Shown here one piece after another: positions 31,569 to 34,867 of a stretch of 64,000 nucleotides of DNA. The notes under the pieces were generated by a model. It was not told the DNA's origin. It saw only the letters and a program-made list of their open reading frames with translations, and searched no databases. Both the position numbers and the translations under genes were made by a program. Origin of the DNA: Candidatus Latescibacterota bacterium (lineage in GTDB: Bacteria > Latescibacterota > UBA2968 > UBA8231). Numbering within the stretch: the stretch's first letter is position 1; the number at the start of each line of letters is the position of its first letter. The stretch is from positions 3,552,001 to 3,616,000 of the forward strand of contig OZ220089.1 in assembly GCA_964291625.2 (NCBI GenBank). The letters run 5' to 3'.

Positions 31569-32381
31569 ATGTACTCGGTTTCCTACGACGGCTCCAACCG
31601 CAAGGTCATGTGGCAGGAGATGCTCCGCCACGAGTTCGAGGAGGCGGTGGAGCAGGCGCCGGTGGTGATCGTGCCCGTGGGCTCGGTGGAGCAGCACGGC
31701 CCCCACTGCCCCATGGACGTCGACATCTCGGCCCCCTTCCACATGGCCGCCGAGGTGGCGCGGAGGGTGGAGGACTTCCCCGTCATCGTGGCGCCGCCGA
31801 TCTGGTCGGGGTTCACCCACTACAACATGGGCTTCGCCGGCACCATCTCCCTGGGCCTCGAGACCTTCCAGGCCCTGGTGGCCGACGTCTGCCGCAGCAT
31901 CCACGCCAACGGCTTCGAGCGCATCGTCACCCTCAACGGCCACGGCGGCAACGCCGCGCCCTGCCGCGCCGTCAGCTGGCAGTTGGCCGAGGAGGACGTC
32001 TTCACCCTCAGCTTCAGCTGGTGGGACGCCGTCGAGGCCGAGATGCGGGAGTGGAGCGCCACCGACGAGCTGGTTGGTCACGGCGGCGAGTGGGAGACGG
32101 CGGTGCAGCTGCACCTGCGGGCCCACATGGTCGACATGAGCCGCGCCGCCGCCGACAACTCCCTGACGGCCCCCTTCGAGGAGCTGCCCTTCGCCGTCTT
32201 CGCCGAGCGCCGCCGCGACACCGCCGGGGGCACCGGCATCATGGGCGACGCCCTGGCCGCCTCGGCGGAGAAGGGCCGGCGGATCTACGAGCTGGCCTGC
32301 GAGCGGCTGGAGGCGCTGGCCCGCCGCTACCACGAGCTGCCGGTCCGCCACTACCGCGACTTCGGCAGCTTCTGCCGCTAG
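31569..32381 (+). CDS. Creatininase family protein
   Basis: PVGSVEQHGPHCP.DVD, NGHGGN, HGGEWET. Confidence 0.9.
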   Translation: MYSVSYDGSNRKVMWQEMLRHEFEEAVEQAPVVIVPVGSVEQHGPHCPMDVDISAPFHMAAEVARRVEDFPVIVAPPIWSGFTHYNMGFAGTISLGLETFQALVADVCRSIHANGFERIVTLNGHGGNAAPCRAVSWQLAEEDVFTLSFSWWDAVEAEMREWSATDELVGHGGEWETAVQLHLRAHMVDMSRAAADNSLTAPFEELPFAVFAERRRDTAGGTGIMGDALAASAEKGRRIYELACERLEALARRYHELPVRHYRDFGSFCR

Positions 32382-33712
32382 GCGCTCCGAGCGCCCGCCC
32401 CCCCGGGCTCCCCGCGCCGGAACAGGACACCGAGCAGCACCCAGAAGGCCCCCGCCGTGGCGGGCAGGTGCAGCGGGTAGCTCACCAGCCCGTGGACCAT
32501 GACCGCGGCGCATCCGCCGAGGGCCGCCCAGGTCACCGGATCCCCCGAGCGCCAGGCGGGTCCGAGGGCGCCCAGGCCGCCCGCGGCGAGCAGGACGACC
32601 AGCGGCAGCAGGCCCGCCAGGCCCGACTCGGCGGCCGTCTGCAGCAGCTCGTTGTGGGCGTGGCGGGGCAGGCCCCCCCTCACCGTGGCCAGCAGCCGCG
32701 TCTCGGCCTCGTCCGCCAGGGCGCCCGCCGTCCGGAACTGCCCGGGTCCGGCGCCGAGCCAGGGGTCGGCGGCGAACATGCGCCAGGCGAGGCTCCGGAG
32801 CACCCGCCGGTGCACCAGGGTGGCGTCCCGGTCGGCCTCATCCCCGGCCACGTTCAGCATCGCCTGCAGCCGCTGGCCGACCGAGGTCTCTCCCAGGCGG
32901 TTGCTCATGACCGGCTCGTGGCGGAGCAGCAGCGCCAGCCCCGCCGCGCCGAGCAGCAGCGGCAGCCATCCCAGGGGCCGCGCCCGGAGCCGGCGCAGCC
33001 GCGCGCCACGGACGTAGCCGGCGAAGACCACGGTGGTCCCCGCCAGACAGCCGGCCAGCGCCCCGCGGCTGCCCGCCAGCAGCAGGATCCCGAGGATCAG
33101 CAGGACCGCCAGCCCCAGGCCCAGGGCCGGCCGCCAGCGGACCCCGCCCGGGGAGCTGCCCGCGCCAAGGCCGGCGGTCAGCAGCAGCGGCAGGGCCGCG
33201 GCCAGGAAGCCGGCGAGGTGGTTGGGGTTGGCGAAGGGCCCCACCACGCGGTCGGGAAAGAAGTCGGCCCGGGGGACCGGGTCCCAACCGGCGTGCTGGG
33301 CGGCGGCGTGCAGGGAGGCCGCCACGGCGCCGGCGCCGATGCCGGCCATGGCGACCGCGGCGTCGGGCCCGCGCCGGAGCTGCCAGCCCACGAAGAGGGC
33401 CGCCGTCCCCAGCAGGGGGGGCAGCAGGGAGGCCGGCTCGGAGGATCCGCCCAGGGCGAAGCTGATCACCAGGCCGGAGAGCCAGGCGGCGGCGGGCCAC
33501 AGCAGGCGGCGCGGAGGCCGTTCCGGGCAGCGGCGGAGCAGCCCCGCTGCGAGGAGGACCGCCGTCGCCGTCAACCCGGCGGCCAGGGGTCCGCGGGAGC
33601 CTGCCGCGGGGGGCAGGAGGGCGACGATTGCCAGGCAGAACGCGGCCCAGCGGGCGAGGCCGGAGGCCTGTCTCCATCGTTGACGGAGAGAGGCATGTTC
33701 CCTAGCTTCCAA
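32378..33712 (-). CDS. O-antigen ligase (Wzy_C) family membrane protein; start uncertain
   Basis: GPFANPNHLAGFL, SRGALAG, PWLGAGPGQF, HAHNELLQTAAESG; an out-of-frame ATG at 33677 may be the true start if there is a 1-bp indel. Confidence 0.8.
   Translation of the reverse strand: MEAREHASLRQRWRQASGLARWAAFCLAIVALLPPAAGSRGPLAAGLTATAVLLAAGLLRRCPERPPRRLLWPAAAWLSGLVISFALGGSSEPASLLPPLLGTAALFVGWQLRRGPDAAVAMAGIGAGAVAASLHAAAQHAGWDPVPRADFFPDRVVGPFANPNHLAGFLAAALPLLLTAGLGAGSSPGGVRWRPALGLGLAVLLILGILLLAGSRGALAGCLAGTTVVFAGYVRGARLRRLRARPLGWLPLLLGAAGLALLLRHEPVMSNRLGETSVGQRLQAMLNVAGDEADRDATLVHRRVLRSLAWRMFAADPWLGAGPGQFRTAGALADEAETRLLATVRGGLPRHAHNELLQTAAESGLAGLLPLVVLLAAGGLGALGPAWRSGDPVTWAALGGCAAVMVHGLVSYPLHLPATAGAFWVLLGVLFRRGEPGGAGARSA
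33680..33708 (+). promoter_or_regulatory. sigma70 promoter for rpsR
   Basis: TTGACG (33680-33685), 17 nt, TAGCTT (33703-33708). Confidence 0.65.
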
Positions 33713-33776
33713 AGCTCACCTGCCGCATCGGCCCTCCCGCCGGCGGCCCCTCCACGCCGCACAGGAGCCAAGCGCC

Positions 33777-33998
33777 ATCGCCCGGGTCAATCGCAAAGAG
33801 TTCACGGCCAAGCTTAAGCCCGAAGAGATCGACTACAAGCGGCTCGACGTGCTGTCCCGCTTCCTCACTCCCTTCGGCAAGATCGAGCCGGCCCGCCGTA
33901 CCGGCGCCACCCGCTCCCAGCAGACCAGGATCGTGCGCGCCATCAAGCGGGCCCGCTATCTCGGGCTGCTGCCCTACAGCATCAACGATACGCGTTAG
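33777..33998 (+). CDS. rpsR: 30S ribosomal protein S18, Cys-free type, apparent ATC start (absent from ORF track)
   Basis: Manual translation: IARVNRKEFTAKLKPEEIDYKRLDVLSRFLTPFGKIEPARRTGATRSQQTRIVRAIKRARYLGLLPYSINDTR*; AGGAG at 33763-33767. Confidence 0.9.
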   Translation: MARVNRKEFTAKLKPEEIDYKRLDVLSRFLTPFGKIEPARRTGATRSQQTRIVRAIKRARYLGLLPYSINDTR

Positions 33999-34013
33999 CC
34001 CCTCTTTTCACCC

Positions 34014-34493
34014 GTGCCCGGGTCCGCTATCGGACTGATCGAGACCCGCGGCCTGGTCGGCGTCATCGAAGCCGCCGATACCGCGGCCAAGGCGGCCGAT
34101 GTCCGCCTGCTCGGGTTCGAACGCATCGGCGGCGGTTTCGTTTCCCTCAGCTTCCGGGGCGACACGGCGTCGGTGACCACCGCCGTCGAGGCCGCCCGCG
34201 CCGCGGCCGACCGTGTCGGTGAGGTCGTCAGCGCCCACGTCATCCCGTCGCCGCGGATCGACGTGGAGTCCCTGGCCCCGAGGGCCCCGGCCCCCCGGCC
34301 CGAAGGGGACGCGCCGGAGCCGGCGGAGCTTCCCCAGGATCTCGACGCGGTGCCGGTCAGCCGGCTGCGGCGGCTGGCCCGCCAGACCGCCGGTGTCGGC
34401 CTGAAGGGCCGGCAGGTATCGCGCGCCAACAAGGAGCAGCTGATCGAGGCGTTGCGCCAGGCCCTCGGCGCCCCCGGATCGGCGGGAGAGTGA
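34014..34493 (+). CDS. Bacterial microcompartment shell protein (BMC-H) with C-terminal extension
   Basis: AIGLIETRGLVGVIEAADTAAKAADV..GGG..FRGDTASV..SAHVIPSP; Pro-rich linker; helical tail. Confidence 0.85.
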   Translation: MPGSAIGLIETRGLVGVIEAADTAAKAADVRLLGFERIGGGFVSLSFRGDTASVTTAVEAARAAADRVGEVVSAHVIPSPRIDVESLAPRAPAPRPEGDAPEPAELPQDLDAVPVSRLRRLARQTAGVGLKGRQVSRANKEQLIEALRQALGAPGSAGE

Positions 34494-34867
34494 GCATGGA
34501 CAGGACGTGGGATTCCATCAAGCGCGGGTTCCAGGGCGGCGCCGCCGCCGCCGCCAACAAGGCCGGCAAGCTGACCCGCATCGGGCGGGCGCGGCTCGAC
34601 GTGGCCGCCGCACGGACGCGCCTGTCGCGCCTCTACACCGAGCTGGGGCAGAAGGTCTTCCGGCTTCTGGAGGAGGGCCGGGGCGCGGAGCTGAGCAGCG
34701 AGCACGGGGTCCGCGAGCTGCGCCAGCGCATCCGCGAGGCCGCGGCGGCGCAGCGCGACGCCGAGGCCGCGTACGAGCGCGTGCGCCGCGGCGAGCAGGA
34801 GGCCGAGGAAACCCCGCCGCCGGACGAAGGCCCGGAGGCGCCCGAGTCTCCCTCCAGGGCGGAGTAG
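34490..34867 (+). CDS. Hypothetical coiled-coil protein
   Basis: Overlaps BMC stop; helical, typical codon usage. Confidence 0.6.
   Translation: MSMDRTWDSIKRGFQGGAAAAANKAGKLTRIGRARLDVAAARTRLSRLYTELGQKVFRLLEEGRGAELSSEHGVRELRQRIREAAAAQRDAEAAYERVRRGEQEAEETPPPDEGPEAPESPSRAE

Follow-up and report, generated by a model that had tools for sequence, protein, structure and literature searches.

How a ribosomal protein gene is translated when its reading frame holds none of the usual start codons ahead of the conserved domain is the question raised by rpsR, the gene for ribosomal protein S18 (bS18), in a 64,000-nt stretch of DNA from a Candidatus Latescibacterota bacterium (GenBank assembly GCA_964291625.2, contig OZ220089.1, positions 3,552,001 to 3,616,000 of the forward strand), referred to here as the window. 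The reading favored by the evidence, to which a probability of about 0.7 is assigned, is that this is the sole functional bS18 gene of its genome, that it has its own promoter and a conserved AUC start kept by selection, and that translation per mRNA is most likely low and dependent on IF3 and on ribosome status, the last of these steps being the one that we infer. The elements on which this reading turns are the following.

33763..33767, plus strand: Shine-Dalgarno sequence AGGAG, 9 nt ahead of ATC 33777
33777..33779, plus strand: predicted initiation codon ATC of rpsR, at which protein conservation begins and which is conserved across the order
33777..33998, plus strand: coding sequence of rpsR (bS18), 73 aa with 0 Cys, TAG stop at 33996-33998, 67.7 bits to PF01084

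The start codon of rpsR and its conservation

The frame is open from the TGA at 33681-33683 to the TAG at 33996-33998 (104 residues), and its residues 46-96 match the Pfam family Ribosomal_S18 (PF01084) with an E-value of 9.4e-19, the score lying far above the cut-off of 21 bits and reaching 68.8 bits for the same domain in a six-frame Pfam search of the whole genome. The original prediction, which was made from the letters of the window and a program-made list of open reading frames (ORFs), had recognized an S18 sequence overlooked by that list and had described it as lacking Cys, and the domain match and the translated product bear out both points. The gene was missed because the only canonical start in its frame, the GTG of a 49-aa ORF (33849-33998), sits 10 codons within the Pfam match. 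Started at the ATC, the product has 73 aa against the 75 aa of E. coli S18, to which it aligns with an E-value of 3.1e-13 (E. coli residues 13-71 with product residues 9-68), and it matches 68 distinct PDB sequences, solved bS18 chains among them; judged by these alignments, it is an S18 of normal length.

Inspection of the frame agrees with the claim that no ATG, GTG or TTG precedes the S18 domain: between the TGA and GTG 33849 there is none, and the only near-cognate codons in this interval are CTG 33720, which has no Shine-Dalgarno sequence, and ATC 33777. The proposal that the latter is the start stands as well, both the codon and its AGGAG being conserved in the order. Contigs assembled from three RNA runs and one DNA run carry no sequence variant at 33777-33779, the RNA-library contigs spanning the Shine-Dalgarno sequence and the ATC, and an ATG at this codon was found neither in these contigs nor in close relatives, 68 of the 73 S18 genes compared below being of the ATC type. 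The ATC is thus neither a sequencing error nor a private mutation.

In three NCBI proteins of 73 aa (P0003, P0013 and P0015, reading MARVNRKEF…), the first residue corresponds to codon 33777, so the NCBI annotation already uses this start, and the ATC start of rpsR is in this sense implicit in three annotations and not described in the literature found: a search for ATC-started S18 or rpsR and for Latescibacteria start codons, which did not extend to supplements, returned no description. Other S18 products in public collections (P0051, P0008 and P0018) are of 49 aa or extended at the 5' end, the kind of product made by gene callers that accept no start but ATG, GTG and TTG. These products are what could be cited for an artefact or for another start, i.e. 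for a sequencing error in position 33779, for a pseudogene, or for CTG 33720 or GTG 33849 as the true start. The probability of any of these is practically negligible, given that the ATC is found in 68 independently assembled genomes and that the contigs hold no variant; a start at GTG 33849 would moreover remove the conserved EIDYK block, and CTG 33720 is absent in genome G007 and in other genera and precedes the points at which the RNA contigs start. The consequence for annotation is a practical one, since S18 is a universal marker and callers restricted to the three canonical codons truncate it, extend it or miss it, with effects on completeness scoring and on marker phylogeny.

The comparison across the order was made with the 76 genomes of it in the collection, which form one family of 18 genera. 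An S18 match was present in 71 of them, the five others being 58-94% complete, and of the 74 matches fetched a partial one (L090, 30 bits) was dropped, leaving 73 full genes, of which 68, in 15 of the 18 genera, are of the ATC type. The starts fall into three types.

ATC at the equivalent of codon 33777: 67 genes
ATA in the homologous codon and ATC in the one before it: 1 gene (G054)
ATG with an N-terminal extension: 5 genes (the sole copies of genera g4, g11 and g21, and second copies in two g13 genomes)

The ATC-type genes represent 58 distinct sequences from -30 to +3. Similarity between the S18 proteins begins exactly at this Ile, the sequence upstream being unrelated between genera, and GGAG lies 7-9 nt ahead of the ATC in 64 of the 68 genes, with AAGGGGA in its place in the three genes of genus g22. 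None of the 68 has ATG, GTG or TTG at the start position, and in 14 no canonical or near-cognate codon other than the ATC is listed ahead of the domain. At three Ile positions within the protein that are invariant, ATC is used in just 55 of 67, 59 of 65 and 56 of 66 genes, a comparison that, the genomes being related, serves as a hint and not as a statistical test. On this sequence evidence, ATC 33777 is the real, conserved start codon of rpsR.

Some of the remaining S18 sequences have features of their own. The sole, ATG-type copies of g4 (L022), g11 (L024) and g21 (L049) have an RREF motif that is repeated in the N-terminal extension and long C-terminal tails rich in Arg and Asp. Two g13 genomes carry, beside the ATC-type copy, a second, divergent, Cys-free and ATG-started S18 that is 58-67% identical to the query (L079 on G089:C59 and L085 on G088:C109). 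An S18 of 75 aa with 65% identity to the order type (P0053) bears the NCBI label Candidatus Bathyarchaeota archaeon; the archaeal label on an S18 of bacterial type suggests a misbinned contig.

The sole S18 copy and the zinc question

Cys-free (C-) and Cys-bearing (C+) paralogues of S18 are known as pairs linked to zinc economy, and the original prediction had accordingly considered the gene as a Cys-free paralogue that replaces a zinc-binding S18 when zinc is limiting, with the odd start as a means of control. The title of one of the matched PDB entries, 9e16, itself reads '30S ribosomal protein S18 C-', and the rpsR product resembles the C- form in having no Cys where sister families have the CxxC…CxxH kind, so that a paralogue of this kind may well have been the ancestor of the gene. 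It differs from the C-/C+ pairs in that the genome has no C+ partner, the C- form being the constitutive and only S18. The six-frame Pfam search gives one S18 match in the genome (G000), whose assembly comprises 5.9 Mb in 2 contigs and is 95% complete, and tblastn with the genome's own S18 and with a Cys-bearing S18 finds no second, the next match having an E-value of 0.48. Across the order, the 71 genomes with S18 have a single match in 68 cases and two in 3; the second copies, where sequenced, are likewise Cys-free, and all 68 ATC-type genes encode 0 Cys.

The gene lies, as had been claimed, outside the rpsF operon. The genes rpsF and rplI are found about 1 Mb from rpsR (G000:C1:2573523-2575300; L091 1492-3274), and the slot of rpsR between them is taken by a gene for a DUF2232 membrane protein. 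This cluster follows an ORF that by eye resembles a membrane pyrophosphatase. Inspection by eye of the promoter regions of rpsR and its orthologues revealed no palindrome resembling a Zur box, no formal search having been run. Because there is no other S18 in the genome, the Cys-free protein is not a stand-in for use under zinc limitation, and the zinc framing of the gene, which would have it replace a zinc-binding copy, was not upheld; such a role is regarded as very improbable.

Where the gene came from is suggested by the comparison with three sister families of the class (20 S18 genes from 13 genera). In these, S18 starts at ATG in 19 of the 20 genes and at GTG in one, and the Cys3-His motif CRFC…TGTCARH is present in 19, the other (L140) having lost the second half of it to a deletion. 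The gene order is rpsF-rpsR-rplI in G092, and rpsF-rpsR followed after ~1 kb by rplI in G106. The Pfam S18 scores are 83-93 bits in the sister families (G112, with 61.5, being the exception) vs 56-73 bits in this order. The simplest history would be that the ancestor of the order gave up the Cys-bearing S18 of the operon in favor of a divergent S18 that lacks Cys and is encoded at a new locus. The AUC would then have arisen along with the Cys-free protein and the new locus in place of the Cys-bearing rpsR of rpsF-rpsR-rplI, and would be an ancestral trait of the order held by selection.

Initiation at AUC and possible control through IF3

In the course of events proposed here, rpsR would be transcribed from the promoter TTGACG-17-TAGCTT, probably together with the two genes that follow it (for a BMC-domain protein and for a protein of 125 aa), and AGGAG, 9 nt upstream, would position the start of translation at AUC 33777. 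Near-cognate start codons are read by the initiator tRNA and give an N-terminal Met; by this general knowledge of initiation, the initiator tRNA would read the AUC and S18 would begin with (f)Met. A special initiator tRNA was sought with aragorn, which lists three CAT tRNAs and one Ile-GAT and none with a GAU-type initiator anticodon; as regards initiation, the tRNA genes are ordinary. The same search returned a tRNA-SeC (G000:C1:3423790-3423886) and a tRNA-like gene in which the anticodon, tacg, has four bases (tRNA-???, G000:C1:1557843-1557920).

The AUC codon is reported to initiate in E. coli at ~1-2% (0.02-3%) of the level of AUG, with N-terminal Met (10.1101/063800), and the rejection of such codons by IF3 underlies the autoregulation of infC, the IF3 gene, through an AUU, AUA or AUC start (summarized in PMC2830850); the codon is AUU in E. 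coli and, according to the same paper, AUA in Deinococcus-Thermus. That a one-per-ribosome protein should be made from a codon working, by the E. coli figure, at ~1% of AUG, and that this should be kept across an uncultured order, is unexpected for ribosomal protein genes. As IF3 discriminates against AUC and infC carries the same codon in this genome, low and IF3-dependent translation of rpsR is the most likely function of the start: S18 synthesis per rpsR mRNA would be kept low and sensitive to IF3 and ribosome status, as for infC. Control of rpsR through IF3 is in this analogy plausible.

The infC gene of the same genome (G000:C2:778818-779333, minus strand; L092 1498-2013) has the identical ATC, 8 nt after GGAGG, in a Shine-Dalgarno and spacer context similar to that of rpsR. 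In all 40 loci examined, from 76 infC matches and with g4, g11 and g21 included, an ATC start follows GGAGG; it is the only candidate codon in 9 of the 40, and in several other loci ATG or GTG also occurs in frame, either farther upstream or no more than two codons away. The likeness of rpsR to the infC system thus lies in an AUN start after a good Shine-Dalgarno sequence, with the codon conserved among orthologues. The difference is that rpsR encodes a stoichiometric ribosomal protein and not the discriminating factor, so that a feedback loop is not self-evident.

The alternative that bears most directly on this last point accepts the ATC as a real start and takes it for a fixed setting of low efficiency, or for a tolerated quirk of a somewhat permissive lineage, with no dynamic control by IF3. 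In the main ribosomal cluster, each of the 21 genes that Pfam identifies as coding for ribosomal proteins has a plausible canonical start, be it ATG, GTG or TTG (the last in rpsL, rpsC, rplW and rpsK), in a survey that left out genes dropped by its GC3 filter, and plausible canonical starts were found for EF-G, EF-Tu, SecY and RpoA too. Neither of two genome-wide filters shows an excess of ATC preceded by a Shine-Dalgarno sequence over the control codons GTC, TTC and CTC (18 vs 13, 14 and 16 with the first filter; 87 vs 119, 87 and 124 with the second), the high background of internal sites in these counts meaning that no number of ATC-started genes can be derived from them. Both surveys speak against this alternative, in that the other ribosomal protein genes examined are canonical and ATC starts are rare and not general.

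ATC initiation is nevertheless not unique to rpsR and infC. Among 100 ATH codons preceded by a Shine-Dalgarno sequence, 13 were picked by eye, 7 of which have no canonical codon in the interval from the upstream stop to the site; tested as N-terminal pieces of 110 aa, 2 of the 7 have Pfam support. One is a GntR-family regulator (G000:C1:1177405-1177809, plus strand; L146) with an ATC start 7 nt after GGGAG, in which the HTH domain extends from residue 15 and no canonical codon occurs before residue 30. Its orthologues start at ATC in g1, g22, g11 and g15 (with one ATT), at TTG in g14 and at ATG in more distant members. The other is a permease with an OppC_N domain (G000:C1:255007-254090, minus strand) at residues 31-75, where the first canonical codon is at 49 and the best candidate start is an ATA 7 nt after GGAG. 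ATC initiation is therefore rare yet not unique in this genome. The turnover of start codons in the GntR regulator indicates that they can change on this timescale, which makes the invariance of the rpsR and infC starts more telling. Four further ORFs in which a Shine-Dalgarno-preceded ATC is present and the interval from the upstream stop to this ATC holds no canonical start were noted at G000 C1:1869002, C1:527126, C1:2522592 and C2:219215; by eye one resembles an aldolase, one carries a signal peptide like that of a lipoprotein, one is an ABC permease and one, of 582 aa, is acidic at its N-terminus, and the first 110 aa of these four gave no Pfam match.

Several findings weigh against control through IF3, and most of them favor the fixed setting as well. 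Since the GntR regulator uses ATC (with ATC or ATT in four genera) and the OppC-like permease is without a canonical start, such starts are not confined to genes of translation. Genera g4, g11 and g21 have, without visible harm, an ATG-started S18 that is extended by ~20 residues at its N-terminus, and their infC keeps its ATC. The regulatory logic is also not obviously homeostatic, as an excess of IF3 would lead to less S18 and hence to less 30S, so that the excess would be reinforced and not corrected. Finally, stoichiometric amounts of S18 from a codon that has ~1% efficiency in E. coli would need compensation, for example an abundant mRNA or a more permissive initiation in this lineage. 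Against a setting without control stands the fact that all 68 ATC-type genes keep the ATC in an order where the GntR start codon turns over; it is considered a possible explanation, if on the unlikely side.

A different, self-correcting form of the control is suggested by the report (PMC6868393) that in E. coli non-canonical codons are used more for initiation by the pre-30S particles of rbfA or ksgA mutants, the check being restored by extra IF3. By analogy, immature 30S particles, or those short of IF3, would favor the AUC-started rpsR and infC mRNAs, and these would top up S18, a late-binding protein of the platform, and IF3, the factor that binds beside S18. The supply of S18 would then be self-correcting, through a small start-codon regulon replacing the control by the rpsF operon. 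This model is speculative, and its probability is put at a low level.

Low, IF3-dependent translation from the AUC, the reading preferred here, can be set beside two further systems. In Deinococcus, an ATC start of dnaA and a CTG start of rpsL have been shown by N-terminal proteomics (PMC2830850). The rpsR start resembles these as a lineage-wide non-canonical start on a core gene that gene callers miss or set wrongly; it differs in that the protein is S18 and not S12, the phylum is another and the start is known from sequence, rpsL itself starting at TTG here. In Streptomyces, the GTC start of sigR, which belongs to a sigma/anti-sigma pair, has been shown experimentally to be repressed by IF3 (PMC5472188). 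It likewise is a conserved non-canonical start that holds down the translation of one partner and sets the stoichiometry; unlike it, rpsR is a case that is only predicted to work in this way. The order thus offers a natural test case for the strength of IF3 discrimination outside the model organisms and for a coupling of a ribosomal protein to IF3 through its start codon.

Promoter, leader and neighboring genes

The region ahead of rpsR and the genes on its two sides hold the following features.

33680..33685, plus strand: -35-like hexamer TTGACG, read in the sequence and conserved upstream of orthologues
33703..33708, plus strand: -10-like hexamer TAGCTT, 17 nt after TTGACG
33729..33776, plus strand: the part of the 5' untranslated leader seen in RNA contigs, from the starts of RNA-library contigs
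34014..34493, plus strand: gene for a BMC-domain protein of 159 aa, PF00936 92.4 bits, 15 nt after rpsR
34490..34867, plus strand: gene for a protein of 125 aa (p125), third of the conserved cluster, no Pfam match
32378..33712, minus strand: gene for a Wzy_C (O-antigen ligase-like) membrane protein, PF04932 65.2 bits, divergent and bounding the promoter region

The promoter TTGACG-17-TAGCTT had been proposed from the sequence of the window, and conservation lends it support: TTGACN, a spacer of 16-18 nt and TAnn[AT]T stand ahead of the ATC in 62 of the 67 orthologous upstream regions long enough to examine, the five regions without the pattern forming one subclade of g1, and the -10 element varies among orthologues at the same spacing (TATCTT, TACTTT, TATTTT and TAGTTT). 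A scan of 33500-34600 for consensus promoters and terminators under a stricter rule called none, so that this promoter too is missed by it. RNA-library contigs of two studies begin at 33729 (X16 and X18) and one of a third study at 33736 (X2), and a DNA contig runs through the leader from 33696. The RNA contig starts hint weakly at a 5' end close to ~33715, where transcription is predicted to start, contigs being of a kind that cannot prove a 5' end. Two RNA-library contigs (33729-34150 and 33885-34082) bridge rpsR and the BMC-domain gene, and these two genes probably share a transcription unit. Contig depth in the RNA and DNA runs is given per contig and was not used for a ranking of expression.

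A hairpin in the leader was considered as a common part of the mechanism and rejected, because a strong fold is confined to g14 and none is seen in g2, g6 and g22. Folding of each of 56 distinct leaders separately gave a mean z of -1.67, with a mean of -2.48 for the 26 sequences of g14, the only genus in which it is strong, and no fold in g2, g6 and g22. For 33 leaders from g14 and g16, RNAalifold returned no consensus pairs, in a MAFFT alignment that fails to register the hairpins, and no Rfam match was found in 33300-34300 at E-values up to 1. The rpsR leaders of g14 (e.g. L050:291-358) have a GC-rich hairpin ~10 nt upstream of the Shine-Dalgarno sequence, and divergent members of g14 and g16 have one at the same position with a different sequence, which is absent in g2, g6 and g22.

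The neighborhood was compared at 24 loci of the order, the locus of G000 included, two of which have no neighbor match at all. The order conserved in most genera is a divergent Wzy-like gene, then rpsR, the BMC-domain gene and the 125-aa gene. A divergent Wzy_C gene precedes rpsR in 17 of the 24 loci, the BMC-domain gene is downstream of rpsR in 20, and the 125-aa gene is kept in 18, either after the BMC-domain gene or, in g12 and g15, directly after rpsR. The rpsR-BMC cluster is not kept in g4 and g11, where the ATG-type S18 gene (L022 and L024) adjoins an ORF labeled MoeA-like by eye. In most genera, the genes for the BMC-domain and 125-aa proteins are odd conserved partners for a ribosomal protein gene.

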